A DNA stretch of 32,000 nt from a bacterium (lineage in GTDB: Bacteria > UBP7 > UBA6624). Made by a program: the position numbers and the translations under genes. This document shows, in pieces, positions 1,923 to 22,367 of this stretch; the stretch's first letter is position 1, and each line of letters begins with the position of its first letter. The stretch spans positions 26,953-58,952 of the forward strand of contig PBAU01000009.1 of NCBI GenBank assembly GCA_002716355.1, written 5' to 3'. Below the pieces are notes generated by a model. It was given only the letters and a program-made list of their open reading frames with translations, ran no database searches and was not told the origin of the DNA.

Positions 1923-1934
1923 TTTAATCAACAG
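1908..1934. terminator. Weak AT-rich hairpin spanning the two convergent stop codons of pabC and hflC; a possible bidirectional terminator-like element
   Basis: GTTGATT (1911-1917) pairs with AATCAAC (1926-1932), with an 8-nt loop and one extra T-A pair outside. No U-tract follows on either strand. Confidence 0.2.
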
Positions 1935-5202: not shown

Positions 5203-5981
5203 TTTTTACTATCGTATCTTTCTTTTGAAATTATAGGTCTTGTTAATTCTTTAAATATATTCCAACCTTGAAGGATTTTCTTTTCCAATTTAACCTCGTA
5301 ACATTCAAGATATTGTTTTGCTGTTTTTTTATTTACTCCTGAAGAAATCATTATGGATTCTTTGATTTTGTCAATGTTTTTTTTGCCCCAAGTGTATGAA
5401 CAAAATAGCTTTTTATCGATTTCATTTTTGTATTTTTCTGCTTTTGATCCTTTTTTGACACACCAGAAGGCATAAGGTATTGATGTTCCAGTCATCTCAT
5501 GCCAAACTAAACCTAAATCTTCAAAGAAAGCGTATTTACCATCTTGGTACCACCTTAAAGCTTTATCGCCTATACAAAGAACTGCTTCTGAGGATCTTGG
5601 ATCATCCGCATGTATCAATTTTGGATAATGTTTAAATTTTTCCTTCCATATTGCTTTCAGTAATAATGGACTTGTTACCCCGCTTGATAAATCTCTAATT
5701 CTGCATTCTTTCAACTCTTTCCATGGACGATCGCTAAAAATTCCTACACTCATGACCGGACCCGAAGAAGATATGCCCCATGACCTTAAGGGTATTGCTT
5801 TTGAGTTTGATATTATGGCTCCAGCAGACAGCAAACCTGTTTCGAATTTTTCTTTCTTCCAGTCCTTTTCAACTTCAACAGGTCTTTTTGTGAAAAATTC
5901 AAAATCATGTTCAATTTTGTTTCTTTCTAATGCTAATGTCAAAGGGTATCTGTTTCCAAATCCAATAAGGCTTGTCTTCAT
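5199..5981 (-). CDS. mqnA: Chorismate dehydratase MqnA (VitK2_biosynth family)
   Basis: GPVMSVGIFS, SGVTSPLLLKAIW, VLCIGDKAL and DLGLVWHEMTGTSIPYAFW match the MqnA pattern (V.SV..., S.TS..L, LIGD.AL, DLG..W...TGLP.V.A.W). Operonic with mqnC. Confidence 0.75.
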   Translation of the reverse strand: MKTSLIGFGNRYPLTLALERNKIEHDFEFFTKRPVEVEKDWKKEKFETGLLSAGAIISNSKAIPLRSWGISSSGPVMSVGIFSDRPWKELKECRIRDLSSGVTSPLLLKAIWKEKFKHYPKLIHADDPRSSEAVLCIGDKALRWYQDGKYAFFEDLGLVWHEMTGTSIPYAFWCVKKGSKAEKYKNEIDKKLFCSYTWGKKNIDKIKESIMISSGVNKKTAKQYLECYEVKLEKKILQGWNIFKELTRPIISKERYDSKK

Positions 5982-6022: not shown

Positions 6023-6676
6023 ATGAAAAGAAAAGAGGCTGTTTTTTTAAAAATGAAAGCTTCTAGCGGTTGTTTGCATTCACAAGTTGAGCTAGGCAGA
6101 GCTTTTTTGTTTGGGGAGGGTTTTTCTCAAAGCTTTAAAGATGCTGAATTCTGGTTAAGAAAATCATACGAAGAAGGTAGCCTAGAGGGCGCTTATCAAT
6201 TGGCAATGTTTTTAAAAAGGTCGATTGGCAATAAAGAGAAAAATAATGAAGCTTTTCAGGTTCTTTATCATGCTGCTAGCTTAGGCCATGTTAAAAGCCA
6301 GAGAAGGTTAGCAAGATGTTTTTTGAATGGTTCTGGAACAGAGGAAAATCAAGCTGAAGCTGCTTGGTGGTTTTTTGTTTCAGGTCTTTTAGGCGATCGT
6401 GATTCAAGGTTTATGCTAGGCAGGATGTTTGAGCTTGGGCAAGGTGTTGATCCTGATTCAGATGAATCTGTTTATTGGTATGAGCTTGCTGCTGAGAATG
6501 GAGATGTTGATGCTCAGTTCCTTCTTGCAAAAATTTTATTCAATAAAGGCTTTATCGAAGATTCTGAAAGATGGTTTAAATCGGCAAGAAGAGCTGGAGA
6601 CAAAGAGGCCGTTAAGGAGTTGAAAAAAATAAAAGAAATAAAGGAGAGTGAAATTGATGAAAATTACAAATACTGA
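6023..6676 (+). CDS. Sel1-like repeat (SLR/TPR-like) protein
   Basis: Repeated A..W..KAA..G..AQ..LG..Y..G pattern, for example AEFWLRKSYEEGSLEGAYQLAMF, AAWWFFVSGLLGDRDSRFMLGRMFELGQGV and VYWYELAAENGDVDAQFLLAKILF. Confidence 0.8.
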   Translation: MKRKEAVFLKMKASSGCLHSQVELGRAFLFGEGFSQSFKDAEFWLRKSYEEGSLEGAYQLAMFLKRSIGNKEKNNEAFQVLYHAASLGHVKSQRRLARCFLNGSGTEENQAEAAWWFFVSGLLGDRDSRFMLGRMFELGQGVDPDSDESVYWYELAAENGDVDAQFLLAKILFNKGFIEDSERWFKSARRAGDKEAVKELKKIKEIKESEIDENYKY

Positions 6677-6980
6677 AGAAGTTCCCGGATACAAGGTTAT
6701 TGAAATTGTTGGACTAGTTGAAGGTTCAACAGTAAGAGCTAAGCATATAGGAAAAGACATAATGGCGGGGCTTAAGGGTATTACTGGCGGAGAGATGAAA
6801 GAATACACCGAGCTCTTAAATGAATCAAGGCAGGAAGCGGTGAAAAGAATGTCATTGAGAGCTGAAGCATTAGGGGCAAATGCCATACTTAATGTAAGGT
6901 TTTCAACATCAAGCGTTTCTCAAGGTGCTGCTGAATTGTTTGCATATGGCAGTGCTGCAATCGTGGAGAAGAATAGCTAA
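6657..6980 (+). CDS. ybjQ: YbjQ/UPF0145 family protein (putative heavy-metal-binding domain)
   Basis: MKITNTEEVPGYKVIEIVGLVEG...GGEMKEYTELLNESRQEA..RM...AEALGANAILNVRF...ELFAYGSAA matches the family along its full length. I prefer ATG 6657 (AAGGAG at 6641-6646, 10-nt spacer) over the track's GTG at 6648. Confidence 0.8.
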   Translation: MKITNTEEVPGYKVIEIVGLVEGSTVRAKHIGKDIMAGLKGITGGEMKEYTELLNESRQEAVKRMSLRAEALGANAILNVRFSTSSVSQGAAELFAYGSAAIVEKNS

Positions 6981-6984
6981 AGAG

Positions 6985-7446
6985 ATGTGGGAGATTCTTA
7001 GTCAGTTTTTATGGTTGATTTTCTGTTTTGTTTTTTGGCTGGCAGGAAAGATCAAAGAGCAAAAATATTTAAAATCATTGAGGGAAGAGGAGCCTGAATA
7101 TTCAGATATTCAAATTTTAAGCACAGTCGATTCAGCTAGTTCCTCAGAAGCTAAAGATTGTTGCTTGTGTTCAACCCAAGTTGTATTGGCAATAGACCCG
7201 GGCAAGCAAGTTATTGCTTGGATTTTGGGCATGGTTGGCGGAAAGATTGATGTTTACCAGAAGGTTTTGCATATGGCAAGACGTAAGGCGAAGCTTAATT
7301 TAAGAAAGCAGGCAAGAGAAAATAACTCAAGATTGATTATGAATTACAGGATGGAAACATCGAATATTTTTGCAAATAGTGGTAGCAGTGAAGGTCAAAG
7401 TAGTGCCGTTGAGGTTTTTGCATATGGAACTATTGTCAAGAGCTGA
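6985..7446 (+). CDS. Membrane-anchored divergent YbjQ-like protein
   Basis: The track ORF 6925..7446 overlaps ybjQ. ATG 6985 lies 4 nt after the ybjQ stop and yields a TM helix (ILSQFLWLIFCFVFWLAG). The C-terminal GGKIDVYQKVLHMARRKA...VEVFAYGTIV resembles the YbjQ core. Confidence 0.55.
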   Translation: MWEILSQFLWLIFCFVFWLAGKIKEQKYLKSLREEEPEYSDIQILSTVDSASSSEAKDCCLCSTQVVLAIDPGKQVIAWILGMVGGKIDVYQKVLHMARRKAKLNLRKQARENNSRLIMNYRMETSNIFANSGSSEGQSSAVEVFAYGTIVKS

Positions 7447-7464
7447 AGGACACACAATGATCAA

Positions 7465-8016
7465 ATGATTTTTTTTACAATTATGATGTTTGCGATGGCT
7501 TTGGATTCAAAGATAAAAGAACCTGATTACACCATTCTGCAAAAGGAAAAAAATATAGAAATCAGAGAGTATTCTGAATATGTAATTGCCAGAACGTCTG
7601 TAATCAAAGACGAAAACAGGAGCGATAATGGAATGTTTATGATTCTTGCCAATTACATTTTCGGTGGAAACAAAAAGAAAGAAAGCATCGCTATGACTGC
7701 TCCAGTTATAACAAAAGAAAATGATGAATCTTACGACATGGTTTTCTTTATGCTTGATGTTGATGAGGTTGATGAGTTGCCGAATCCAGATAGCAAAAAT
7801 GTCCATTTGGAAAGAATGAACCTAGGTAAAACTGTTGCTATAAGGTTTGGATGGTGGGCAACAAGATGGAACATCGAAAGGAATAGGAGAATTTTAGAGC
7901 GTTATATTGAGGAAAATGATTTAGAGGTTGTTTCTGAGATGATGGTTGCTCAATACAATTCACCTTGGGATTGGCCATTTCTTAGGAGAAATGACGTTAT
8001 TTTTCAAATTAAATAA
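7465..8016 (+). CDS. SOUL/HEBP-family haem-binding protein
   Basis: EPDYTILQKEKNIEIREY...FMILANYIFGGNKKKESIAMTAPV matches the SOUL signature (E.P.Y.v....yE.R.Y ... F..L..YI.G.N....I.MT.PV). Confidence 0.75.
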   Translation: MIFFTIMMFAMALDSKIKEPDYTILQKEKNIEIREYSEYVIARTSVIKDENRSDNGMFMILANYIFGGNKKKESIAMTAPVITKENDESYDMVFFMLDVDEVDELPNPDSKNVHLERMNLGKTVAIRFGWWATRWNIERNRRILERYIEENDLEVVSEMMVAQYNSPWDWPFLRRNDVIFQIK

Positions 8017-8031
8017 GATTGAAATCGATAC

Positions 8032-8652
8032 ATGAATAAAGAAAAAGAAAGCGCAGTTAACTTTTTTGGAAAATGGGCTGAAACAGGAAAAGACGAAGGC
8101 ATGGAGGAACACCATTCTGATTCCGTTAAATTCATGTTAGATCAAATCTTGAATCAAGCAAGTGCTAAATTTAATTTTATAGATGCTGGTTGTGGTAATG
8201 GATGGGTTGTTCGAAAGGTTAAGTTACATCCTTTATGTGAGCATGCTTCAGGAATAGATGGAGCGTCCCAGATGATAAATAAAGCAAAATCCCTTGATCC
8301 TGCAGGTAGTTATTTCCATAACGATTTGATTAGTTGGGATCCAGATTCCAAATATGATTTTGTCCATTCTATGGAGGTTTTTTATTATTTCAAAGATCCC
8401 TCTGTGCTTCTGAAAAAAATACACAAAGATTGGCTTTCTGAAAAAGGAAAGCTTGTATTCGGAATCGATCATTATCTTGAAAATAAATCATCCTTGGATT
8501 GGCCTGAAAAATGTGGCGTCTTCATGAATACGTTGCCAATAAGCAAATGGCATGATTTGATTTCAGAAGCAGGATTCAAGAACATCAGGAATTGGCAAGT
8601 TGGAAAAAAGAAAGATTGGCTTGGAACGTTGGTTTTTTATGCAGAAAAATAA
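8032..8652 (+). CDS. Class I SAM-dependent methyltransferase
   Basis: Motif I FIDAGCGNGW, followed by an acidic post-I residue and the length of a Rossmann-like fold. Substrate unknown. Confidence 0.7.
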   Translation: MNKEKESAVNFFGKWAETGKDEGMEEHHSDSVKFMLDQILNQASAKFNFIDAGCGNGWVVRKVKLHPLCEHASGIDGASQMINKAKSLDPAGSYFHNDLISWDPDSKYDFVHSMEVFYYFKDPSVLLKKIHKDWLSEKGKLVFGIDHYLENKSSLDWPEKCGVFMNTLPISKWHDLISEAGFKNIRNWQVGKKKDWLGTLVFYAEK

Positions 8653-9435
8653 TTATTTTCTTTGGACCATCCAGACGCCAAAAAGAACAACCGGCAAGGC
8701 CATCCAGAATCCTTCTTGAGGAACTTGTTTGTAAATTGTCATTGCAACCAGTGTTGTTGTTGGCGGTTGCAGATTGATAAACACTGCAACTTGACTTGGT
8801 TTTAGAAACTGGAGAGCTGTGGCCCATATTGAATAGGCCACTATGCTTGTTAGGAATGCAATGTGAAATAGGCCATACCATGCAAAAGGTGTAATCTCAG
8901 AGAAATTGGGTTTCTCACCAATCAAGAATATCCCAACAGCAATAGGTAGACCTATCAAAAAGGATCTTGAAATAGCCTCTTTTGCACCTATGGTTTTTGA
9001 TATTGGAGGTATGAGAGATGTGTATATTGCCCAGCATATAACACCAAAAAGTATTGTTTTTTCTCCGTTGCCAAAAGTTGAAAGCCCACTGTTGCCAAGA
9101 ATCCAATATGTTCCTGAAAATGCCAACAAGAGTCCAAAGATTCGAGAAAAAATAACTTTCTCTTCTTTAAGTATCAATGAAATCATTAAAACAAAAACCG
9201 GTGTTGTTGCATAAAGAATGGAAGCATGCGCTGGAGGCGTTCCCATGGACATCCCCTGTAAAAAAAAGGCTTGATTTAATACAATTAAAATACCACAAAA
9301 TATCATTCTTGGCATAAGTTTTTTTGGAATTATAGAAAAGCCATTTTTGTAAATTCCTATTAGTGAAAATATCAAAACTGTAAGAGCGATCCTTAATCCA
9401 ACTAATGCTGAACCACCAAAGGCTTCACTTGACAC
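8653..9435 (-). CDS. EamA/DMT-family transporter. The coordinates give the first canonical start (GTG 9435), but the true start is probably upstream (see findings).
   Basis: I count nine TM helices in the 260-aa ORF. A tenth, EamA-like first helix (KRKVILLLLVHLAITALTYNVSK) is encoded in the same frame just upstream, without an ATG, GTG or TTG. Confidence 0.7.
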   Translation of the reverse strand: MSSEAFGGSALVGLRIALTVLIFSLIGIYKNGFSIIPKKLMPRMIFCGILIVLNQAFFLQGMSMGTPPAHASILYATTPVFVLMISLILKEEKVIFSRIFGLLLAFSGTYWILGNSGLSTFGNGEKTILFGVICWAIYTSLIPPISKTIGAKEAISRSFLIGLPIAVGIFLIGEKPNFSEITPFAWYGLFHIAFLTSIVAYSIWATALQFLKPSQVAVFINLQPPTTTLVAMTIYKQVPQEGFWMALPVVLFGVWMVQRK

Positions 9436-9548
9436 TTTTGATACATTGTATGTAAGCGCAGTGATTGCTAAATGTACAAGCAGTAGCAGGATAACCTTGC
9501 GTTTTGGGATTTCTTTGATTGTTGTTTTGATTTTGAGATTGCCTTCTT

Positions 9549-10700
9549 TTAGATTCTTTTTGCAAATTCCATAAGATCTTTTTTGCTGGGTGCATCACTA
9601 TATACAGAGTTGACTGGTACAGGCTTCCTGCCACTTTCTTTTAATATTCGCATGAGGTTTGCTTGTGTAAACTCATTTGAAGAAAAGCCTCCAGCTTCTT
9701 TTGCGATTTCTTCATCAAGACTTGTACCACCAACATCATCAACTCCATAATGCAACAGAACCTGTGTCATTTTTGGACCTTGATATGTCCATAGTATTCT
9801 GATGTGCGGAAAATTATCTAAGTAAATTCTGCTTATTGCGCAAATTCTTGCGTCATAATGTCCCGTAGTAGCTCCTACCTCATCTTCAAATTCTGTATTA
9901 TCGGGAAGAAAGGCCAATGGTATCAAGGCGAGAAAACCATTCGTTTTATCCTGAGTTTTCCTCAAAAGGTCAAGATGATGAATGATTTCTTCTTTTGTCT
10001 CTATGTGGCCATAAAGCATTGTTGCATTGCTATTCATTCCAACCTTATGTGTAATCTCATGTATTTCAAGCCATTCCTCTCCAGTCTCTTTGTTTCTTGC
10101 AATAATTTGTCTTGGTCTTTCATGGAATATTTCCGCTCCACCGCCAGGAACAGAGTCAAGGCCCCATTTTTTAAATTTAACCAATAATTCTTCTGGGGTT
10201 ATTTTGCATAATTTTGCTATATATCTAATTTCTATTGCAGTGAAACCCTGTATAAACATATGAGGAGCTTTTCTTTTTATTGTTTGCAGAAATTCTTTGT
10301 AGTAATCGAGTTTTAATCTTGGTGTTATTCCGCCAACAATATGTATTTCCCAAATTCCATTGCGTACAGCCCAGTCAACTCTTTTTTCCAGTTCTTCTTT
10401 GTCGACAATATAGGATTCTTCATGCATTTTTTTAGGATTAAAAGGTCTTTTGAATGCACATAAGCCACAATCAAGTATGCATTCATTTGTATGGTTTATA
10501 TTTGAGGTGTTCCCATAAAATGATTTATTTCCCCATCTTTTTCTTCTTATGTAGTCAGCCATGATTCCCAATGCAGTCAAATCACCTTCTTTAATCAACC
10601 TGACACCTTCTTCATAAGTGATTCTTTCTCCTGATTTTATTTTCTCCCAAGCCCAATTGTCGGGATGGTTTTTTAATAGGATATCTGCTGTTTCAGGCAT
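9549..10700 (-). CDS. mqnE: Radical-SAM menaquinone (futalosine pathway) enzyme, most likely aminofutalosine synthase MqnE
   Basis: CILDCGLC CxxxCxxC cluster. GGAEIF and LALIPLAFLPDNT segments. Adjacent to ubiX/ubiA/ubiD homologues, as I recall for the Streptomyces SCO4494 family. I prefer ATG 10700 (MPETADIL, 8-nt ATGCCTGA overlap with the ubiX stop) over the track start at 10736. Confidence 0.65.
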   Translation of the reverse strand: MPETADILLKNHPDNWAWEKIKSGERITYEEGVRLIKEGDLTALGIMADYIRRKRWGNKSFYGNTSNINHTNECILDCGLCAFKRPFNPKKMHEESYIVDKEELEKRVDWAVRNGIWEIHIVGGITPRLKLDYYKEFLQTIKRKAPHMFIQGFTAIEIRYIAKLCKITPEELLVKFKKWGLDSVPGGGAEIFHERPRQIIARNKETGEEWLEIHEITHKVGMNSNATMLYGHIETKEEIIHHLDLLRKTQDKTNGFLALIPLAFLPDNTEFEDEVGATTGHYDARICAISRIYLDNFPHIRILWTYQGPKMTQVLLHYGVDDVGGTSLDEEIAKEAGGFSSNEFTQANLMRILKESGRKPVPVNSVYSDAPSKKDLMEFAKRI

Positions 10701-11316
10701 CTTGAAATTCCTTTGGAATTCCCCATTCAGGTACAAGCTTATTGTCTATGTTGAGTGAATCAAGAATGCGTGCAACAACACTATCTATTAGGTCCTGAAT
10801 GGTTTCAGCACCTTGGTAAAACGTTGGATTTGCATCTACGATAGTGGCCCCAGCTCTAGATACTTTTAACAAGTTGTCAAGATGAATTTGAGAAAGTGGT
10901 GTTTCTCTAGGAACAAGGATCAAAGGTCTTTTTTCCTTTAGTGTCACATCTGCCGCTCGATGAAGAAGGTTTGATGTTACTCCATTTGATATATGCCCTA
11001 AGGTTCCCATCGACATTGGAACAACGACCATGCCTCTGGTTCTATAGGTTCCGCTTGCTATAGTGGCTGACATATCCATCCCTGGATGCCATGTTAAATC
11101 AGTCCATTTTACATTTTTGCCATATTGTTCTTCGATGAATTTTTGTGGATTTTTACCAAAATTGAAATTCAATTCATGATTTAACAGATATTTTCCCCAT
11201 TTGCTTGTGACTATTTCAACTGGAATATCCCTTTTGACAAGTTCTTTAATCAATGTGTGAGCATACAGTGCTCCTGAAGCTCCAGTTATACCTACAATTA
11301 CAGGTAAATTTTTCAT
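10693..11316 (-). CDS. ubiX: UbiX-type flavin prenyltransferase (prFMN synthase; MqnM role)
   Basis: VGITGASGALYA N-terminus and RAADVTLKEKRPLILVPRETPLSQIHLDNL align closely with my recollection of E. coli UbiX. Confidence 0.9.
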   Translation of the reverse strand: MKNLPVIVGITGASGALYAHTLIKELVKRDIPVEIVTSKWGKYLLNHELNFNFGKNPQKFIEEQYGKNVKWTDLTWHPGMDMSATIASGTYRTRGMVVVPMSMGTLGHISNGVTSNLLHRAADVTLKEKRPLILVPRETPLSQIHLDNLLKVSRAGATIVDANPTFYQGAETIQDLIDSVVARILDSLNIDNKLVPEWGIPKEFQDA

Positions 11317-11936
11317 TAAGATATTTTATCTTCCTTCAGTGAAGATAGGATGTTTATTTTCTCCATAACTTCCTGGTCATGTATTCCAACTCTCACGCTT
11401 GTGAAAACATATGCAATCTTTCCTTCAGGGTTGACTATAAAAGTTATTCTTGATGCAAAGCCCAGGTCACCTAAAACTCCAAACTTTTGACTAATCTTCT
11501 TGTCAGAATCAGCAATAAGATCAAAAGGTAACTCCTTGTCTTTCTTGAATTTTCTTTGTGTTTTTAGATTATCTGTACTGATACCTAGTACATTAATATT
11601 TTTTTGATCAAAGTTAGAGTAACCGTCTCTCAAACTACATGACTGAGTTGTACATCCAGGGGTAAAAGATTTTGGGAAAAAATAAAGAACGCTCCAGTTG
11701 CCCTTAAGGTCTTCTGAGGTTATTGTTCCAGATGTTGATGAAGCTTCAAATTCAGGAATGCTTTCACCTATCTCTAAAATTTCCCGATCCATAAGCTCAC
11801 CTGGTTTCACAAAGGTATCATAAACAGCGATGCCAAATATAAATATTATGAAGATTAGCGCTTCCAAGCTGAAACCTTTGATTATTACTGGTAGGCCTTT
11901 TTTAACATTCGATAAGATTTTTTTCAAGTGATTCAT
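11316..11936 (-). CDS. bcp: Membrane-anchored peroxiredoxin of the Bcp/PrxQ type
   Basis: YFFPKSFTPGCTTQSCSLRD (PGCT...C Bcp motif). A Lys-rich N-terminus and one TM helix (LEALIFIIFIFGIAVY) precede the domain. I prefer ATG 11936 (ATGA overlap with the upstream stop) over the track start at 12017. Confidence 0.8.
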   Translation of the reverse strand: MNHLKKILSNVKKGLPVIIKGFSLEALIFIIFIFGIAVYDTFVKPGELMDREILEIGESIPEFEASSTSGTITSEDLKGNWSVLYFFPKSFTPGCTTQSCSLRDGYSNFDQKNINVLGISTDNLKTQRKFKKDKELPFDLIADSDKKISQKFGVLGDLGFASRITFIVNPEGKIAYVFTSVRVGIHDQEVMEKINILSSLKEDKIS

Positions 11937-13480
11937 TTTCCCTCTAAAATTTTCAACCTTTCTTCTTTTTGGCTGAAAAAGTTTTTTCTCAGCATGTATC
12001 TGTAGGGATTCTCCCATGAAACAAGCCAGCTTTGCATATTGATGTCGGCATTGAAGCCAGATTCATTTGAGTTTGGGTTTTCCTGAGGGTCATAAGGCTT
12101 TCCTTCATACAGGGCTTCATAAGTCATCAGCATGTTGCCCCTGTTTGGATTTTTGATTTCTATACTGAATGGAAGAACATCCCAGCCTGGACACCAATAG
12201 GCCCTTCCATAAGGCCATGTTCCAAATTGGTTAGGGACTACACCTTCGTTAGCAAGTTGATAACACCCTTCACCAGTGCCAGCTTTCGGGTCTTTTAATT
12301 CCCCCAAAATTTCACCATTGATGGAAAAGTGATGTGTATGATTGCAGAATTCAGCACAGTTTGCAACATCTCTTCCCCAACCGTGACCAGACATGATTCC
12401 GTTTATCGTGTATTTTTCAAATTGAGGATTTTCTAAAAGGTAAGGTTTTTTAGATGGGTTATATTCCAGATTGAAAGATCCTCCTGTCCACATCCTGTGG
12501 GCATTCATCGGTCTAAGTTTGCTATCATTTTTGGACAGGTAAATACGCATGTTCATTATGTAGGAGGAGTTTCCTGTGGGTACATTTATTTTGAATTTTT
12601 TAACCCCGCCTTCTTTAAAAAAAGCCAAGAAAGGGGTTATGTCAGTAAGCCAAACACCCCTCCTATGATATGTCGTAATCCATCTTGACATCAGGATATC
12701 ACACTTGTTCTCTTCGCAAAGGTGCAAATTTGCTATCATGTCCCATTCATAACAGTTTTTATCATTATTGTCAGGGCAGTTCATTTCAAAATAAATTTCC
12801 ATCTCGTTAAAGCTTAAAAGTTTTTGTGTTTTTGGAAACTCAACTTCAAACTCTGCATTTGCACCCCAGCCACCGCTTAACTCAAAACCATCAAGCATAA
12901 CCACTTCTTCCTTTTTGTCATTAAGCTTCATTTTTTTTGTTAATTCTTTTTCCCAGTAAAGGTATTGGATCTCTTTTTCAACTGCATCGAAAATCGGAGT
13001 AGGGCTTTTTCCTGGTGGTCGGAGAAGGCCAAATTGTCTTAGGTGACCATTTGAATCAATTAAGAATCCAGCTTTATCTGCACTCCATTCTTTTTCCCAT
13101 TCAGAAAGTATTAATTCAATGTTATCAGGCAAGACGGTATTATTTTTATTTATAAAATGTAAATATTTTTCCCAATCTGTGCCAATTACATTTTCTTTAA
13201 TTTCATTTAATCTTTGATCCGCTGATTCACCTGAAGCAATAAAGACTATGTTTGTTTTGGGTATTTCATCTATTAGTTCTTGAAAATTTGAACTCCAGAG
13301 GTTCTCCGTATAGGCATCCCCTTCTGTTAATTCAAGAAAGGCTATTATTTCATCTGAATCTTGAGTGTATGAAAATACTCCTTGATCAACTTGAAGTTCA
13401 AATGATTCTATTTTTTCAAAAGGTTTAACACCATTGAAAAATGACAACAGCATTAAACCCAATAAATATTTTTTTCTCAT
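11933..13480 (-). CDS. Secreted PNGase F-like (peptide-N4-glycanase F fold) protein with an unassigned ~230-aa N-terminal domain
   Basis: NCPDNNDKNCYEWD, NCAEFCNHTHHFSING and GCYQL...GRAYWCPGWDV parallel recalled PNGase F segments ECPNKTCDEWD, GCAEWCFRTHTIAINN and GCSANP...RAGWCPGMAV. ATG 13480 gives a signal peptide (MRKKYLLGLMLLSFF) and a TAATG overlap with the upstream gene. Confidence 0.7.
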   Translation of the reverse strand: MRKKYLLGLMLLSFFNGVKPFEKIESFELQVDQGVFSYTQDSDEIIAFLELTEGDAYTENLWSSNFQELIDEIPKTNIVFIASGESADQRLNEIKENVIGTDWEKYLHFINKNNTVLPDNIELILSEWEKEWSADKAGFLIDSNGHLRQFGLLRPPGKSPTPIFDAVEKEIQYLYWEKELTKKMKLNDKKEEVVMLDGFELSGGWGANAEFEVEFPKTQKLLSFNEMEIYFEMNCPDNNDKNCYEWDMIANLHLCEENKCDILMSRWITTYHRRGVWLTDITPFLAFFKEGGVKKFKINVPTGNSSYIMNMRIYLSKNDSKLRPMNAHRMWTGGSFNLEYNPSKKPYLLENPQFEKYTINGIMSGHGWGRDVANCAEFCNHTHHFSINGEILGELKDPKAGTGEGCYQLANEGVVPNQFGTWPYGRAYWCPGWDVLPFSIEIKNPNRGNMLMTYEALYEGKPYDPQENPNSNESGFNADINMQSWLVSWENPYRYMLRKNFFSQKEERLKILEGK

Positions 13481-15585
13481 TAATACAACCACTCCTTTTT
13501 AAATATTACCTTCCATGAGTCACCGGTTGATTCATCATTGGTATTTACAACTAGGTATGTTGCTTCTCCATCCTTGGGCCTGAATTCAAATCTAAAATAT
13601 GCATTAATTGCATCTGATAGATTGTTTTTTTGTACCGAAAGGCTGTAAAGATGGGATGATGTTGGGGTGTAGCCAAAATCAAATGAATATATTTCAGAGC
13701 TCGATGAGGAGCTGCCTCTTTTTACATTATTCATATTCCAGTTTGGCCCAAAAGAAAAATCATTTGTTATTTTGTAATTCAGCCACCCGTCAAGGCTCGT
13801 CTTGCTAGCATCATACCAATCTCCAGAATTGAAACCTCCACCCCATACCCATTTGTAATCATAGGCCCAGCCAAAATAGTTCAGACCGTAATCAACATAA
13901 TCATATTCACCTGCAGGTATTATTGTCCCAGGTAATGACCAAGGTTCAAAATCTTGATCCAAAACTGATTTGTACATTGTGATTTCAGGCCTCCATGACC
14001 ATCCATTACTCATAGATAAACCCAACGGTTCTATTCTTAGAGAGTTTTCTACAAGCTTGTTCGCTCCATTTGAAATTTCATTGAAGCTGATCTCATTTGA
14101 AATTTCCCTTATTTGATATTTTTCTTCACATTTTTTTTTCCAGAAATTTATACATTTTGATACATTTTCCGAATGTTCAATTTCAATTTTTTTAACTTTT
14201 ACTGAATCATTCAACGATGAGTATCTGTAATAGCCTAGGCCAGGGTCAAAATCTGCATCAAAAATCATATATTCGGCGGAGGCAGAAAGAGGATTTCCGA
14301 AGCTTTCTACTTTAAAATAATGGCCTTCTCCATCTTTATTTTCGCTTGATGAAAATTGTGACCATAAGTCAACATTCAACCTTGTCCCATTGTCGTTAAT
14401 CGACTTCCATGAAACATCTATGCCATTTGTCATGTTTGAAGAATTCGAATCTTCACTGGAGGAAATAAAACCTATATTTGTGTTGTCTGTTATTTGATGT
14501 TTTGTTCTTAGGATTGCAAAATGTTCATCAATTGAGTCTTCAACCCATGCTGTTAAAAAGCCAACCTCATTAATATCGAATTTCCCTGTGATTTTTGATC
14601 CAACTCTAAGTGGAAGCTGGTTTCCATTTTCATCTAAACCGATATTTCTGCTATGGAATGGAAGGGCTGAACCTTTGCTACCAAATGAAAAAAGTCCTGA
14701 ATTTTCTAAAAAGAAATCTCTTTTTTCAGGAAAAAACAAAGAGTAGCGAGTTAAGTTGCTTTGCTGTACATCTGCCTCAGCTTCTCCAAAATCAGCATTC
14801 AAAACTGATGCAATCCTCCATCCTTTCCATGGGGTGCCAATAATGTCTATTCCAACATCAGCCTTATAGTCCATCTCTGTTTCTTGAGTCGCTTTTCCAA
14901 GCATAAATGGTTTCATTATCCAAGGATTTGAACTGGGCAAATCATTCATTCCTGTTAATTCACCTCCTTTTGACAGTGTGTTAAGGCTATTGCTTTTTTC
15001 CCATCCTGTCCAATAGCCAGCTTCCCTTTCTTTTGAGTACCAGTATTTGAAATTTATTCCCCAGTTGTTATTATTCTCTGCATATGCAAGCGTTGAAAAA
15101 GGTATTTTTATTTCTGCACTCCATCCATCTTTTGTCAATGTGCCCATTCCTTCCCAATATCCATCCCAATCTTGATCTGGCCTGGATTCATTGGTTATCG
15201 TTCCATCAACCCTGCTTCCATTAGCATTAATGCCAAAATAGTAACCATTTCTTTTTGACAAATAAGGGTCTATAACAATTTCTATTTTGTCATCATTGTA
15301 GAGAGTTTGGTCCCTTTTTTTGTAATTGTTTATCAGCTTGTCAGTTTTTGCCTTATACCCTATATATAGATTTTCTTTATCTCTCCAGATGAAAATCCTT
15401 GCTTCAAGGGTGCCTTTTTCGCCTTCTTTTGGTTGTTGTTGAGTCCAATTTTGAATAATTGCTGCCTTGCTCCACACCTCTTCTTCGAGAATTCCATCAA
15501 TCTTCACGCTCTGCTGCATTGTTGGAGCGCTTATTGTTTTTGATGCAATCAAGATAAGTGAAATTAAAATTTTGTTTTTTTTCAT
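13480..15585 (-). CDS. Secreted CBM9-like (DOMON superfamily) domain protein with a large C-terminal DUF5916-type region, possibly a beta-barrel
   Basis: Signal peptide MKKNKILISLILIASKTISA. IDGILEEEVWSKAA...QQQPKEGEKGT...ENLYIGYKA matches the CBM9_1/DUF5916 family N-terminus. The C-terminal 450 aa is rich in alternating aromatic/Gly/Ser/Asn. Confidence 0.6.
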   Translation of the reverse strand: MKKNKILISLILIASKTISAPTMQQSVKIDGILEEEVWSKAAIIQNWTQQQPKEGEKGTLEARIFIWRDKENLYIGYKAKTDKLINNYKKRDQTLYNDDKIEIVIDPYLSKRNGYYFGINANGSRVDGTITNESRPDQDWDGYWEGMGTLTKDGWSAEIKIPFSTLAYAENNNNWGINFKYWYSKEREAGYWTGWEKSNSLNTLSKGGELTGMNDLPSSNPWIMKPFMLGKATQETEMDYKADVGIDIIGTPWKGWRIASVLNADFGEAEADVQQSNLTRYSLFFPEKRDFFLENSGLFSFGSKGSALPFHSRNIGLDENGNQLPLRVGSKITGKFDINEVGFLTAWVEDSIDEHFAILRTKHQITDNTNIGFISSSEDSNSSNMTNGIDVSWKSINDNGTRLNVDLWSQFSSSENKDGEGHYFKVESFGNPLSASAEYMIFDADFDPGLGYYRYSSLNDSVKVKKIEIEHSENVSKCINFWKKKCEEKYQIREISNEISFNEISNGANKLVENSLRIEPLGLSMSNGWSWRPEITMYKSVLDQDFEPWSLPGTIIPAGEYDYVDYGLNYFGWAYDYKWVWGGGFNSGDWYDASKTSLDGWLNYKITNDFSFGPNWNMNNVKRGSSSSSSEIYSFDFGYTPTSSHLYSLSVQKNNLSDAINAYFRFEFRPKDGEATYLVVNTNDESTGDSWKVIFKKEWLY

Positions 15586-16424
15586 ATCGTCATGAATGCT
15601 CCAAGAAGCAATAGTATGCTAATCCATCCATTTGCTGAGAAAAATGCAGCATTGATTCTTTCAATGTTATTGGCAGAAATTATTGAATGCTGCCACAATA
15701 GAAGAAAAAACATCAGAACGCAAGCAATAATCCAACCTTGAGACCAGTCAAAAGCAGACCCAAAAAGAAAAAACAGCAGTGCTGCGAAAAAATGCAGTAT
15801 GCGTGATACCGATATAGCTTTGTCTGCGCCATAAATTGCAGGAATTGAATAAAGTTTCATTTTTTTATCAAATTTAATATCTTGCAAGGAATAAAGTATA
15901 TCGAAGCCAGCAACCCAAAAAGTAACTGCTAGACATATCAGGTAGACCTTATCTCCCCATCCACCAGTTGCAGCAATGAATCCACCAGCTGGTGCACATG
16001 CAAGTGTTGCACCAAGCCAAAAATGACAAAACACACCCCATCTTTTGGTGAATGGATACATTGACAAAAGAAGGACTGCAATTGGCGCTAGTTGCCATGT
16101 TAAATCATTGAGGTTTTTTGCCGCATAGCCAAGAATCATCAAACTTGCGAAGACTAAAATCCAGACTGATTTTTTCTTAACGACACCAGTGACTAAACCC
16201 CAGTTTTTGCTTCTAGGATTTTTTTTATCGTAAGGGTAATCAATCAATCTATTAAGTCCCATTGCTGCTGTTCTTGCACCAATCATTGCGAAAAGGATAA
16301 GGCAGGTTGTTTTTACATCAGGATAATCCCTCAAACCCGCAATCAATCCAACAAATGCAAAAGGTAAAGCGAAAACGGTATGTTCAAACTTGATCAACTT
16401 TAGTATTGACGAAAAAGAATTCAT
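15582..16424 (-). CDS. mqnP: UbiA-family aromatic prenyltransferase (MqnP-type, proposed 1,4-dihydroxy-6-naphthoate polyprenyltransferase)
   Basis: NRLIDYPYDKKNPRS (N..xD...D..NPR motif) and multiple TM helices. Flanked by ubiD with a TAATG overlap. Confidence 0.8.
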   Translation of the reverse strand: MNSFSSILKLIKFEHTVFALPFAFVGLIAGLRDYPDVKTTCLILFAMIGARTAAMGLNRLIDYPYDKKNPRSKNWGLVTGVVKKKSVWILVFASLMILGYAAKNLNDLTWQLAPIAVLLLSMYPFTKRWGVFCHFWLGATLACAPAGGFIAATGGWGDKVYLICLAVTFWVAGFDILYSLQDIKFDKKMKLYSIPAIYGADKAISVSRILHFFAALLFFLFGSAFDWSQGWIIACVLMFFLLLWQHSIISANNIERINAAFFSANGWISILLLLGAFMTI

Positions 16425-17860
16425 TAATTATCTTTAATCTTTTTTAGGATTTCGTCAATTTTTTCTTGGTCTATGCCCACTTGTTCAGGCCATTCTCTTA
16501 TTGCTGATTCTCCTTCAATTTTCCTTGTACCATCAAAGCCTATTTTTGAACCAAATCCTTCAACAGGGCTTGCATGATCAAGCACGTCTACAGGGCCATT
16601 ATCCATCACAATATCTCTTTTTGGGTCAATATTAGACAAGGCATGAAAAGTTGTTTCACTTGGATTCTGGACATCAACATCTTCATCAACAACAACAATG
16701 AATTTTGTAAGACTCAACAAGCCAATTCCCCATATTGCATGTATAACTTTTCTTGCTTGGCCAGGATAGCTTTTCTTAATGCTCACAAGAAGCATATTGT
16801 GAAAAACACCTTCTGCGGGAAAGTGCATATCTTTAATCTCAGAACAGAAAAGCTTGACTAAAGGTAAAAAGATTCTTTCTGTTGCCCATCCTAAAAACCA
16901 ATCCTCCTGTAACGGCTTTCCAACAATTATGTGTGGAAAAATTGGTTTTTTTCGATGTGTTATTACTTCCAAGTGGAAAACCGGATAAGGTCCAGGGTGG
17001 CTATAAAAGCCTGTATGGTCTCCAAAAGGACCTTCCTCTTTCCTCTCGTCTGGATCTACCCATCCTTCTAGAATGAACTCAGCATGAGCAGGAACTTTGA
17101 TATCTGATGTTATACATTTAACCACTTCGACTGGTTTTTTGTTTAAGAATCCTGCTAAAAGGTATTCATCGATTCCCGGTGGAAGGGGGGCACTTGCGGA
17201 ATACATTGTTGCTGGGTCGCCACCAATCGCAATTGCAACAGGTATTTTTTCTTTTTTCTGGCTTGCTTTTACTTCATGCCTTTTACCATCTTTATGTAAT
17301 TGCCAATGCATGCCAAGTGTTTTTTTGTCATGTTTTTGAAGCCTATAAAGCCCCACGTTTCTTGAACCTGTTTCTGGGTCGTTTGTAATTGTGGATCCTA
17401 AACATATGTATGGTCCAGCATCTTTAGGCCAAAGTGTTGGTATGGGAAGTATGTCTAGATTCGCATCATCTCCTTTTAGCACAATTTCCTGACAAGGTGC
17501 TTTTTTTATTGTTTTTGGTATCAGTTGTTTACCCAGCTCAGCAAATTTTGGAAGCATGCCCATAGCGTCCAAGATTCCAGAAACCTTTGGAGGTTTCAGA
17601 AGTTGCTCAATTCTTTCTGAATGTTCGTTAATGTGTTTTACACCGAAAGCCTGAGATACGCGATCCTTGCTTCCAAAAAGATTGACTGCTAACGGAAAGT
17701 TGCTTCCTTTTATGTTTTCGAAGAGCAATGCTTCTTTGTTGTTCCTTGTGTAGTGCTCACCAATCACTGTAACTTCAATTTTTGGATCTATCTCCTCTGT
17801 GATCCTTTTTAGTTCATTCTTTTTTTCCAGATGTTTTATGTATTCAGATAAATTTTTCAT
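16424..17860 (-). CDS. mqnL: UbiD-family prFMN-dependent decarboxylase (MqnL-type)
   Basis: 478 aa with full-length UbiD-like organisation. Operonic with ubiA and ubiX homologues in a futalosine-pathway context. Confidence 0.85.
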   Translation of the reverse strand: MKNLSEYIKHLEKKNELKRITEEIDPKIEVTVIGEHYTRNNKEALLFENIKGSNFPLAVNLFGSKDRVSQAFGVKHINEHSERIEQLLKPPKVSGILDAMGMLPKFAELGKQLIPKTIKKAPCQEIVLKGDDANLDILPIPTLWPKDAGPYICLGSTITNDPETGSRNVGLYRLQKHDKKTLGMHWQLHKDGKRHEVKASQKKEKIPVAIAIGGDPATMYSASAPLPPGIDEYLLAGFLNKKPVEVVKCITSDIKVPAHAEFILEGWVDPDERKEEGPFGDHTGFYSHPGPYPVFHLEVITHRKKPIFPHIIVGKPLQEDWFLGWATERIFLPLVKLFCSEIKDMHFPAEGVFHNMLLVSIKKSYPGQARKVIHAIWGIGLLSLTKFIVVVDEDVDVQNPSETTFHALSNIDPKRDIVMDNGPVDVLDHASPVEGFGSKIGFDGTRKIEGESAIREWPEQVGIDQEKIDEILKKIKDN

Positions 17861-20537: not shown

Positions 20538-22367
20538 TTAGATTTTTTTATTTACGTTTAGTAATGTTGTTTCGCAAAGTTCATTGCTTTCTTTAAGGAA
20601 TTCATTAAGTTTTGACTCAAAAATTTTCTTGAATTTTTCATCCTTTATTTCTTTCAGGTTTATTTTTACATTCAAGCCTGCAGATTCCGCTCCAGCTTTT
20701 GCAAGAAGTGCGCCAGAGCCGACATCGCTTGCCATTCCAGCATCCATGATTTCTGATATTTCACAACAGATCCTTAATGCTGCAAGGCATTGTTTGACTG
20801 TTTGAAGAGGAACATCTGTTGCCTTTTTGTAACCTTCTTGCATCATCCTGCTTCTGGTTTCTTTTTCCTCTTTGGTATCTTTCGGCATTCTCATTGCTTC
20901 TATGACAGAGTCAAATGCATTTGTGTCTTCATCAACTGCTTTTAGGAGAGAATCCTTGATCATCTGTCCTGTTTCTGAAATTTTGCAAAGCTTTTCATAA
21001 TCGTCATCAAACTTTGACTTTCCGACCGATAGGTTTGCAACCATTGTCCCTAGTGCTGCTCCAAGCGAACCGGCAAGAGCCGCAACAGACCCTCCTCCTG
21101 GGGCAGGGGTGTCTCTAGAAACCTCGTCGACAAAATCAAAAGTTTGCTTGTTCACAAGTTCACCATTCATCAATGGTAACCCTAACACTTTTTCCTCAAT
21201 CTCAAAAGGAGAAACATCCCTTAAGCCTAAAGACTGTATTCCGTTTTCAACAATGTCTAGAGATGGTAACCCAGTTGATTTTTTCATTTTCCTCAAATAA
21301 AAAACCCCAGCTTCTTTTATTGACTGATAAGGGATAAGCCCTACGATTTCAGAGCCAGTTATCATTATCCCTCTTTTGTTGGCTTCCTTTATAGCTTCTT
21401 CATATATCAAATGCGGGGGGCTGATTTTGTAGTTTGTAAGGTTCATGCTGATTTGTGATTTTTTGTATTCGTCAATAACCCAGCCGATAGCCTTTACATG
21501 ATCAAATTTTCCATCCTTAAAGACGGGGCCTGACGGTTTTTCTTTGTTTATCTGCAGGCTTTTGTACCTTTCTTCAAGGTTTTTTCCATATTTGTTTTTG
21601 TAATGTGAAGAAAGTTCTTCAAAGCTATCTGCAACATAATCGTCATTGCCGCATGGATGCCTGCCATCCTCAGGGAAGTTTACCACTTTTCCCTTGTAGT
21701 AAAAAGGTTCAGTGTTGCCTTCTCTTTTCCATCTACCTCTTTCCCTTAGCTCGTAAGCAATATCATTGGCATATTTCCTATCTGTTGTATTAAGGTTTAT
21801 ATTCCATGCAATTAGAAATTCCCTGGCTCCAACAGCTGTCGCGCCTGATTTTTCATTAAAGGAAAAAGGACCATAGTCTGGCTTCCATTGTGGGTTTGAA
21901 ACTCTATCTTTAAGCCCTTCGTATTCACCTTGTCTGACATTGGCTAGATTAGACCTTTCTTTTGATTTGGCAGCTTCCTCATAAAGGTAAACTGGTATTT
22001 TCAATTCCTCACCAATCCTTTTTCCAACCTCATTTGCAATAAGAATACAATCCTCCATTGATATGTTGTCAACAGGGACAAAAGGACAAACATCAGTTGT
22101 TCCCATTCGCGGATGTGCGCCTGAATGTTTTCTCATATCTATAATCTCACTGGCTTTTTTTACCGAAAGAAAGGCTGCTTCTTTAACAGCTTCAGGATTG
22201 CCTACAAATGTAACAACTGTTCTGTTTGTATCAGAACCCATGTCAACATCTTTAACTTCAACACCAGTTACTGACTTTATGACTGAAATGATCTGATTTA
22301 TCTTTTCCTCGCTTCTTCCTTCTGAAAAATTAGGAACACATTCAACAAGCCCTAAGTTGCTAGGCAT
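20538..22367 (-). CDS. Bifunctional glutamate formimidoyltransferase / formimidoyl-THF cyclodeaminase (FTCD-like fusion)
   Basis: N-terminal LVECVPNFSEGR hallmark and HPRMGTTDVCPFVP. C-terminal TPAPGGGSVAALAGSLGAALGTMVANLS cyclodeaminase motif. Confidence 0.85.
   Translation of the reverse strand: MPSNLGLVECVPNFSEGRSEEKINQIISVIKSVTGVEVKDVDMGSDTNRTVVTFVGNPEAVKEAAFLSVKKASEIIDMRKHSGAHPRMGTTDVCPFVPVDNISMEDCILIANEVGKRIGEELKIPVYLYEEAAKSKERSNLANVRQGEYEGLKDRVSNPQWKPDYGPFSFNEKSGATAVGAREFLIAWNINLNTTDRKYANDIAYELRERGRWKREGNTEPFYYKGKVVNFPEDGRHPCGNDDYVADSFEELSSHYKNKYGKNLEERYKSLQINKEKPSGPVFKDGKFDHVKAIGWVIDEYKKSQISMNLTNYKISPPHLIYEEAIKEANKRGIMITGSEIVGLIPYQSIKEAGVFYLRKMKKSTGLPSLDIVENGIQSLGLRDVSPFEIEEKVLGLPLMNGELVNKQTFDFVDEVSRDTPAPGGGSVAALAGSLGAALGTMVANLSVGKSKFDDDYEKLCKISETGQMIKDSLLKAVDEDTNAFDSVIEAMRMPKDTKEEKETRSRMMQEGYKKATDVPLQTVKQCLAALRICCEISEIMDAGMASDVGSGALLAKAGAESAGLNVKINLKEIKDEKFKKIFESKLNEFLKESNELCETTLLNVNKKI

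Follow-up and report, generated by a model that had tools for sequence, protein, structure and literature searches.

Envelope-protein genes within a futalosine menaquinone operon

In a 32,000-nt stretch of contig PBAU01000009.1 (the window, to whose position 1 coordinates refer unless another locus is named), seven consecutive minus-strand open reading frames (ORFs) join genes of the futalosine route to menaquinone with a cassette of three genes for predicted exported or membrane-anchored envelope proteins. The string begins with mqnL, encoding a UbiD-family menaquinone decarboxylase (16424-17860; Pfam UbiD_N/UbiD/UbiD_C), and a gene for an MqnP-like UbiA-family prenyltransferase (15582-16424; Pfam UbiA). 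There follow the three cassette genes, encoding a 701-amino-acid (aa) predicted outer-membrane protein with CBM9_1 and DUF5916 matches (13480-15585; Pfam, AlphaFold2 (AF2) and Foldseek), a 515-aa, predicted secreted PNGase F-like glycoamidase of the Ngly2 type (11933-13480; Pfam N-glycanase_C, PDB profile search and AF2) and a 206-aa signal-anchored Bcp/PrxQ peroxiredoxin (11316-11936; Pfam AhpC-TSA, matches to BCP structures and hydropathy). The string closes with a UbiX-family flavin prenyltransferase (10693-11316; Pfam Flavoprotein), the supplier of prenylated flavin mononucleotide to MqnL in the role of MqnM, and an MqnE-like, aminofutalosine synthase-like radical S-adenosylmethionine (SAM) enzyme (9549-10700; Pfam Radical_SAM and CofH_C). 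Both the order and the boundaries of the seven ORFs had been proposed in an earlier reading of this DNA (the original prediction) and are borne out here.

Equally borne out, base by base, are the six start/stop overlaps of 1, 4, 1, 4, 1 and 8 nt that connect these genes: a TAATG at 16424 for UbiD/UbiA, an ATGA at 15582-15585 for UbiA/DUF5916, a TAATG at 13480 for DUF5916/PNGase, an ATGA at 11933-11936 for PNGase/Bcp, a TAATG at 11316 for Bcp/UbiX and ATGCCTGA at 10693-10700 for UbiX/MqnE. A Shine-Dalgarno-like purine run is found 5' of four of the six starts concerned (PNGase, Bcp, UbiX and MqnE). Gene overlap is frequent in this compact genome, being seen in 6 of the window's 14 remaining pairs of same-strand neighbours; six in succession nevertheless have a probability of only ~0.006, assuming independent junctions, as would be expected of one operon. 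Throughout the clade of nearest relatives described below (the window clade) the geometry of the overlaps is kept, at protein identities as low as 68%, and we infer that in this clade the seven genes form one translationally coupled unit. Across the region the GC content is flat (0.35-0.39) and without anomaly, promoter-like or terminator-like sites are not in excess in a consensus scan, and an Rfam scan matched a tRNA-Asn alone, with no riboswitch or other RNA element. The further assertion that the overlaps leave no room for internal promoters overreaches, since promoters may sit within coding sequence.

The assignment of the menaquinone genes is of graded firmness. The UbiD protein passes the NCBIfam equivalog model for MqnL (TIGR03701, mena_SCO4490; 603 bits against a cutoff of 496), with its nearest named relatives, at 52-55% identity, in Omnitrophota, Bacillota, Armatimonadota and Chloroflexota and a Planctomycetota match at 48%, and UbiX likewise passes TIGR00421 (175 bits against 109). 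The UbiA protein passes the UbiA-like subfamily model TIGR01475; its best specific model, MqnP_DT, gives 269 bits, under the cutoff of 430, and the context with MqnL, UbiX and MqnE/D/C supports an MqnP role. The radical SAM protein matches MqnE best (360 bits, with MqnC at 348, both under their cutoffs), and its gene comes after ubiX at the orthologous position in all relatives.

Predicted structures and functions of the cassette proteins

Each of the three cassette proteins belongs to a known family. The domain calls of the original prediction all score above their Pfam gathering thresholds, and its description of three envelope-targeted proteins, two with signal peptides and one with an anchor, is sound as read from sequence. 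For the 701-aa protein the scores are 41.3 bits with CBM9_1 (gathering threshold 23.4) and a marginal 24.7 bits with DUF5916 (22.6), a match that spans just 61 residues; full-length homology extends to more than 1,700 DUF5916-family members. Its AF2 model (pLDDT 88.6) places a CBM9-like beta-sandwich at approximately aa 17-211, followed by about 24 antiparallel strands at aa 223-698, and with a signal-peptide-like N-terminus (MKKNKILISLILIASKTISA) and an aromatic C-terminal residue (...EWLY) the protein is a predicted outer-membrane beta-barrel. Foldseek aligns the N-terminal domain to a Bacteroides CBM-like protein (4jpq; target-normalised TM-score, TMt, 0.73) and returns for the whole model generic large-barrel matches, among them LptD, TonB-dependent receptors, MtrB and FimD (TM 0.3-0.39).

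Residues invariant in the N-terminal domain are W38, D92, D99, D127, W140, W144, W155, E158, W175, E188 and W192, and the family alignment contains no invariant His, Met, Lys or Cys in this domain. Conserved Trp, Asp and Glu make a sugar- or Ca2+-binding role more plausible than that of a haem-binding DOMON, which we rule out on the missing conserved candidates for axial ligands (Met/His or Met/Lys; no Cys); the DOMON-type redox role suggested earlier for this protein is thus unsupported. Conservation in the DUF5916 family peaks elsewhere, in a motif between barrel strands 3 and 4 (aa 263-295, NADFGEAEADVQQSNLTRYSLFFPEKRDFFLEN; 14701-14799, minus strand), and the Pfam DUF5916 model matches that stretch and no other. 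Across 53 sequences its invariant columns are D265, D272, R280, E287, R289, F292 and L293, and the family form of this charged motif reads NADFGEAEADxQQSNLTRYSLFFPEKRDFFLEN. Model confidence is reduced in the motif region, where two short helices are predicted; the motif may form a lumen plug, an active site or a binding site. The barrel has no conserved Cys.

Other DUF5916/CBM9_1 proteins, from Bacteroidota, Acidobacteriota and further groups, share the CBM9-like N-terminal domain, the barrel and the invariant acidic/basic motif with the window protein at 25-31% full-length identity. The proteins of the lineage described below form a distinct sub-clade, with 37-98% identity among themselves against at most 31% to the remaining family. 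A literature search on DUF5916 returned nothing.

The 515-aa protein carries a signal-peptide-like N-terminus, read from sequence, and matches N-glycanase_C (PF09113) with 66.9 bits against a cutoff of 25 over residues 355-487. N-glycanase_N (PF09112) is not reported at E<=0.01, and the PDB profile alignment spans PNGase F residues 21-283. In the AF2 model (pLDDT 92.7) a Cys-less, thioredoxin-like N-terminal domain (~aa 25-190) precedes two jelly-roll domains (~aa 190-490). A PDB search with a profile of 58 homologues retrieves Ngly2 (9lwg) at E=1e-101 and PNGase F at E=7e-19, and Foldseek recovers the same two folds (9lwg at 4e-36 with a query-normalised TM-score, TMq, of 0.77; PNGase F 1pgs with TMt 0.72). 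The N-terminal domain matches thioredoxin-like structures, both in the profile search (TlpA-like 4txo, E=0.005) and in Foldseek (DsbE 3gl3, ResA 2h19 and thioredoxin 3hdc), and has no CxxC motif.

Ngly2 is a zebrafish acid PNGase and proven glycoamidase that was identified and solved in 2025; it is composed of thioredoxin-like (Tx-like), PA and PNGase domains, its catalytic Asp421 and Glu555 correspond to Asp60 and Glu206 of PNGase F, and it differs from PNGase F at chitobiose-contacting positions (PMC12753239). The residues invariant in the 58 homologues of the window protein comprise W246-D247 and C375-A-E377-F-C379, together with R426 and the disulfide cysteines, and the segments holding D247 and E377 line up with the catalytic motifs of PNGase F and Ngly2. 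Of the chitobiose-contacting residues of PNGase F, Trp59 is kept as W246 and Arg61 is replaced by Met248, which varies in the family. On these alignments the 515-aa protein is a bacterial relative of Ngly2, the nearest protein to it with a solved structure, and a predicted glycoamidase. It shares with Ngly2 the order of a thioredoxin-like N-terminal domain before two jelly-roll PNGase domains, and with both Ngly2 (9lwg) and Elizabethkingia PNGase F (1pgs, 1pnf) the catalytic Asp and Glu, the preceding Trp and the disulfide cysteines. Unlike Ngly2, which is lysosomal, it is bacterial and predicted to be periplasmic, and it lacks the PA domain (PF02225) that forms the peptide cleft of Ngly2; that domain is present in some bacterial PNGase homologues (P0040, P0041 and P0082). 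No described PNGase gene is known to lie in a quinone operon.

Retention of the catalytic Asp and Glu of a hydrolase argues against the part in redox or quality control that the original prediction gave to this protein. A copper monooxygenase combining a DOMON with a PHM/PNGase F fold, as in dopamine beta-monooxygenase, was tried for the HTHH motif and ruled out: the motif is the 'CAEWCFRTH' region of PNGase F, with catalytic Glu and disulfide Cys kept, and PNGases match at E=1e-36 to 1e-17 against just 3e-5, with TM 0.24, for PHM. The nearest named relatives of the glycoamidase, at ~37% identity, come from Myxococcota or 'Deltaproteobacteria' metagenome-assembled genomes (MAGs). In the window clade the protein carries a C-terminal tail of ~25 residues (~aa 491-515, NPYRYMLRKNFFSQKEERLKILEGK; 11933-12010, minus strand) that is missing from all other aligned family members and overlaps the region holding the Bcp start.

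In the 206-aa protein, basic residues and a single hydrophobic helix (~aa 23-40) precede the peroxiredoxin domain (aa 54-195; AhpC-TSA, 122.6 bits), a topology that predicts an N-in, C-out signal anchor with the catalytic domain facing the periplasm. Residues 54-195 align to BCP/PrxQ structures, and the motif PKSFTPGCTTQSC follows the pattern P-x3-T-x2-C(95)-x4-C(100) of an atypical 2-Cys enzyme, with the Arg segment SRITF. As in other Bcp/PrxQ proteins (E. coli BCP; 5enu, 3drn and 5iph), the AhpC-TSA fold, PxxxTxxC, a resolving Cys at +5 and a conserved Arg are all present; what sets the window protein apart is an N-terminal extension of ~50 residues with one transmembrane helix and positive residues on its N-terminal side. 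It is divergent, reaching 114.8 bits with the NCBIfam model NF006960 ('thioredoxin-dependent thiol peroxidase'), under the cutoff of 140.

Recurrence in one marine lineage and the wider genomic context

To follow the arrangement across genomes, we searched 185,579 species genomes with the PNGase, obtained 274 relatives, and took the best 80 of the 274 loci with 10-kb flanks for comparison by tBLASTn with all seven window proteins. The arrangement recurs within one deep-branching uncultured marine lineage, in three clades whose DUF5916 identity falls to 37% and which all hold the cassette at the same position between ubiA and ubiX, so that it extends beyond this genome. The window clade, with the full seven-gene order, is represented by the marine MAG loci L005-L008, L092 and L094 from Tara stations, with PNGases 67-90% identical to that of the window.

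Clade B (L001/L002/L009; isolate NIOZ-UU106) is more distant, with 41% identity to the window for PNGase, 44% for DUF5916 and 61% for UbiD. Its order is UbiD, UbiA, an opposite-strand gene for a 464-aa lipoprotein, DUF5916, PNGase and a 174-aa transmembrane-anchored thioredoxin-like protein (WCTLC), followed by UbiX, MqnE, MqnD and MqnC. The lipoprotein gene (L002:2806-4200, minus strand) has no significant Pfam match and encodes a repeated Cys-rich motif, approximately C-D-G-Y-x-G-x-T-E-P-x-D-x3-C-x2-D-G-G-x-W. Clade C (L085), found by a DUF5916 search, has a DUF5916 protein 37% identical to that of the window and no PNGase. Here UbiD and UbiA are followed by an opposite-strand gene for a 1291-aa kinase-WD40 protein, DUF5916, two thioredoxin-like proteins that each carry CxxC and a lipoprotein-type signal sequence, a secreted peroxiredoxin-thioredoxin (Prx-Trx) fusion, UbiX, MqnE, EamA, MqnD and MqnC. 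The fusion gene shares an 8-nt overlap with ubiX, and the Prx domain has 43% identity to Bcp of the window; the Ser/Thr kinase-WD40 gene (L085:6108-9983, minus strand) starts 18 nt from the divergent DUF5916 start.

The triad of the original prediction is accordingly not a conserved unit, as PNGase is missing from clade C and a CxxC thioredoxin takes the place of Bcp in clade B. The conserved core is the DUF5916 barrel with one or more exported thiol-redox proteins just upstream of ubiX-mqnE, a thiol-redox component being present in all three clades, and PNGase is optional. In clades B and C DUF5916 is the first same-strand gene before the ubiX/mqn run, which suggests that it heads a transcription unit there. 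The junctions from DUF5916 through the redox gene to ubiX and mqnE are unbroken in every clade, and those of ubiA/DUF5916, citrate synthase/ubiD and mqnE/mqnD have been broken repeatedly within the lineage; together with the non-orthologous replacement of one thioredoxin-fold protein by another at the same spot, the unbroken core favours selection on linkage. Between the window and L005, the ratio of nonsynonymous to synonymous substitution rates (dN/dS) is 0.086 for DUF5916, 0.060 for PNGase and 0.109 for Bcp, values of 0.06-0.11 that indicate purifying selection on the cassette genes; UbiA gives 0.108, and UbiD, UbiX and MqnE give 0.02-0.03. Metagenomes scanned for additional clades with the DUF5916 type of this lineage yielded only the clades already named and unrelated members of the family.

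Beyond the lineage, the closest outgroup MqnL loci (L089/L090 at 57% and L100 at 54%) carry an uninterrupted UbiE-UbiD-UbiA-UbiX-MqnE-MqnD-MqnC run. The window has the genes of this canonical operon, ubiE-ubiD(mqnL)-ubiA(mqnP)-ubiX(mqnM)-mqnE-mqnD-mqnC, in the same relative order, and differs from it in four respects: it has no ubiE ahead of ubiD, three envelope genes stand between ubiA and ubiX, an EamA gene comes after mqnE, and a plus-strand block separates mqnE from mqnD. The EamA/DMT transporter (8653-9435, minus strand; Pfam EamA) is a further guest, found at the same position in L085 of clade C and in L005, L008 and L094. Together with the plus-strand block it splits mqnE from the MqnD-family gene (5199-5981, minus strand; Pfam VitK2_biosynth) and mqnC (4054-5202, minus strand; Pfam Radical_SAM and CofH_C), whose mutual order is kept in L001 and L085. 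The block itself (6023-8652) holds Sel1-repeat, YbjQ-like, SOUL haem-binding and small SAM methyltransferase genes and is missing at the orthologous position in L001 and L085.

Unrelated guests occupy the same operon in three of five sampled outgroup lineages: two ~500-aa proteins with a PTL_trimer match and a 635-aa Peptidase_S74-domain protein in L091 (11451-17231), a 2109-aa Fic/HATPase_c protein in L101 (8520-14849), and a 485-aa protein with Fic, RHH and PIN genes in L099 (8433-12195). Insertion of foreign genes into the ubiD-ubiA-ubiX stretch is therefore common, and the late-mqn operon seems permissive.

Within 10 kb of some 70 other PNGase loci (Myxococcota, 'Deltaproteobacteria', Bacteroidota, Chloroflexota and Marine Group II archaea), genes for DUF5916, Prx, Trx, UbiA, UbiD and UbiX are all missing, and six other DUF5916 loci lie in unrelated contexts with no PNGase or mqn link. 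Contexts in the wider DUF5916 family include glycoside hydrolases, two-component systems and a peptidase, and among the DUF5916 loci found those of the lineage alone adjoin thiol-redox and mqn genes. The synteny expected of the triad with mqnP, mqnL and ubiX thus holds inside one lineage and fails at the loci examined outside it, where neither family is linked to the other or to these genes. These loci also rule out the thioredoxin as a dedicated partner of the Cys-rich PNGase or of the barrel: neither Trx nor Prx genes adjoin the ~70 PNGase loci, clade C retains its Trx proteins without a PNGase, and the barrel, as noted, offers no conserved Cys.

One association outside the lineage does involve an mqn-like gene. 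In Marine Group II archaea (Poseidoniales/Thalassarchaeaceae) a PNGase F-like homologue of ~1050 aa has an MqnC-like radical SAM gene downstream in 19 of 24 loci. In 17 of these loci the two genes form a tail-to-tail pair no more than ~1.3 kb apart, usually separated by a few hundred nt, and in two (L062 and L084) ~4 kb lies between them. In L043, for example, the PNGase homologue lies at 8402-11581 (plus) and the MqnC-like gene at 11716-12879 (minus), and further pairs occur in L034, L036, L037, L042, L045, L046, L048, L049, L052, L054, L056, L061, L067, L073, L082 and L083. The MqnC-like proteins score 413 bits against an NCBIfam MqnC cutoff of 428 and are 35-39% identical to the window MqnC. 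The pairing is a second, independent PNGase-mqn adjacency and may be a coincidence fixed by descent within one order. Upstream genes in these archaeal loci encode a geranylgeranyl-reductase-like flavin adenine dinucleotide (FAD) protein and a 371-aa protein.

The cassette lies inside a region of ~25 kb that is syntenic in all three clades, from DAO/citrate synthase through UbiD to MqnC and two Band_7 genes. Citrate synthase stands upstream of ubiD in all three clades and, at least in the window and in clade B, has a DAO-type FAD oxidoreductase beside it; in the window the citrate synthase/DAO neighbourhood occupies 22374-23474 (minus) and 23502-24680 (plus). The SPFH/Band_7 pair after mqnC (1924-3857, minus) keeps its position across the three clades. 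At 20538-22367 (minus) the window also encodes a 609-aa bifunctional formiminotransferase-cyclodeaminase (FTCD_N, FTCD and FTCD_C), an architecture better known in animals than in bacteria.

Origin and retention of the cassette

We favour, with a probability of about 0.5, the reading that the three genes are an ancient, lineage-specific guest cassette in the futalosine menaquinone operon, co-expressed with it and not part of a new pathway. An ancestral ubiD-ubiA-ubiX-mqnE-mqnD-mqnC operon would have been split between ubiA and ubiX by envelope-protein genes, whose three products would act in the envelope, each with its family's function. The proteins are predicted to be exported, the proposed late steps (prenylation by MqnP and decarboxylation by MqnL with prenylated flavin from UbiX) need none of them, as the original prediction had recognized, and the outgroups do without them, which argues that they are not pathway steps. 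Judging from family membership, the barrel and the glycoamidase would handle a glycan or glycopeptide ligand, and the peroxiredoxin or thioredoxin would clear peroxides on the periplasmic side of the inner membrane. Menaquinol autoxidises and is known to give rise to superoxide and H2O2 in the periplasm, and the capacity to remove peroxide would rise and fall with the making of menaquinone.

This rationale from reactive oxygen species (ROS) plausibly accounts for the kept co-expression and is the weakest step of the favoured reading. Menaquinol analogues autoxidise through superoxide, and the menaquinone-dependent mycobacterial CIII2CIV2 supercomplex contains an integral periplasmic superoxide dismutase (SOD) (PMC8523172); in E. 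coli, oxidation of the menaquinone pool has been named as giving rise to superoxide and H2O2 in the periplasm (PMC11495604, citing Korshunov & Imlay 2006). The mycobacterial assembly follows the same logic of an antioxidant enzyme that faces the periplasm from a membrane using menaquinone, by analogy and not by homology: its SOD is a physical subunit, whereas here the link is that of an operon alone, with a thiol peroxidase or thioredoxin in place of a dismutase. An anchored, periplasm-facing PrxQ made together with menaquinone would suit an organism of oxic surface or deep chlorophyll maximum (DCM) water.

Several observations weigh against the favoured reading. The evidence for co-transcription is the gene geometry, from which it is inferred, and the three clades, belonging to one lineage, amount effectively to one evolutionary origin. 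The ROS rationale covers the thiol-redox genes and leaves the barrel, the most constant member, and PNGase unexplained; clade B, moreover, holds a thioredoxin-like protein alone, with no recognisable peroxidase, and the window shows no DsbD or CcdA by which an exported peroxiredoxin could be reduced. The citrate synthase gene and the Band_7 pair keep their places just as well as the cassette does, so that functional coupling does not follow from synteny alone. The archaeal PNGase-mqnC pairing, which the favoured reading takes for coincidence, hints at a PNGase-mqn link, and retention could be entirely neutral, as promoterless genes in the midst of an essential operon are hard to lose cleanly.

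This last point is the basis of the strongest competing explanation, a frozen accident in which the cassette landed once in a permissive operon, hitchhikes neutrally and is co-expressed without adaptive meaning, staying in place because it lacks promoters and terminators and each of its genes is independently useful. The guests in three of the five outgroup lineages speak for it, as do the equal synteny of citrate synthase, DAO and the Band_7 pair, the drift of cassette content (PNGase lost, Prx and Trx swapped) and the want of any link of either family to mqn genes at the other loci examined, Marine Group II excepted. Neutral retention does not, however, readily explain why the DUF5916-redox-ubiX-mqnE junctions were never broken when neighbouring ones were, why an exported thioredoxin-fold protein was kept in place through non-orthologous replacement, or why the Prx-Trx fusion overlaps ubiX in clade C too, and we regard it as somewhat less probable than the favoured reading. 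Insertion as a recent horizontal island is ruled out by the flat GC content, the presence in three diverged clades and the dN/dS of 0.06-0.11, and an anti-phage defence system by PADLOC, which gave no match at E<=0.01 for the three cassette proteins.

The original prediction had itself proposed an envelope redox or quality-control module tied to menaquinone in its expression and perhaps in its electron supply. Its activity would then depend on menaquinone, for instance with menaquinol feeding the anchored Prx or Trx and with the barrel and PNGase as partners. Redox proteins anchored in, or secreted beside, the membrane of the quinone pool would be well placed for such a role; the thiol-redox member directly upstream of ubiX is constant, and no DsbD/CcdA-type reductant is seen nearby. 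Set against this are a single transmembrane anchor without a recognisable quinone-binding module, a CBM9-like domain without conserved haem-ligand candidates, and a PNGase that keeps its hydrolase residues and is dispensable in clade C. Typical Trx and Prx disulfide potentials lie well below that of menaquinone (about -74 mV), a gap that makes menaquinol a poor reductant for these proteins, and we consider the proposal improbable. A somewhat different version, to which we give a slim chance, is that the barrel and the exported thiol-redox proteins form an undescribed menaquinone-dependent envelope system with PNGase as an accessory, in which case the Marine Group II PNGase-mqnC tie would be real; such a system could be a menaquinol-fed periplasmic thiol circuit or a conduit of quinone or reducing power to the outer membrane.

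Least probable of all, we find, is an LptD-like translocon in which the DUF5916 barrel would carry lipid or isoprenoid quinone to the outer membrane or outside, matured or protected by the thiol-redox proteins: LptD complexes are the top whole-model Foldseek matches (MtrB has the highest TMq, 0.39), the N-terminal beta-sandwich precedes an even-stranded barrel and is thus probably periplasmic, and the barrel is the most constant cassette member beside the menaquinone genes, but the structural matches are generic at TM 0.3-0.39, the N-terminal domain best matches carbohydrate-binding modules and conserves Trp, Asp and Glu, as is usual where sugar or Ca2+ is bound, relatives across the family of more than 1,700 sit in unrelated contexts, and a barrel without conserved Cys gives Trx nothing to act on.

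In the literature searched, nothing was found on an envelope cassette in a futalosine operon, and a search combining futalosine, operon and peroxiredoxin was likewise empty. If the favoured reading of a co-expressed guest cassette reduces to a frozen insertion, the locus is an instructive yet ordinary case. Even so, the repeated guests in ubiD-ubiA-ubiX call for caution in annotating 'missing' late Mqn steps through guilt by association. For the large, uncharacterised DUF5916 outer-membrane family the locus provides a first genomic-context clue, and relatives of the Ngly2-type acid PNGases prove to be plentiful in bacteria and archaea and to keep the catalytic site intact, so that one may ask which N-glycans they meet as substrates. 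If the co-expression is adaptive, periplasmic peroxide defence would be genetically tied to quinone synthesis in menaquinone respirers of oxic seawater.

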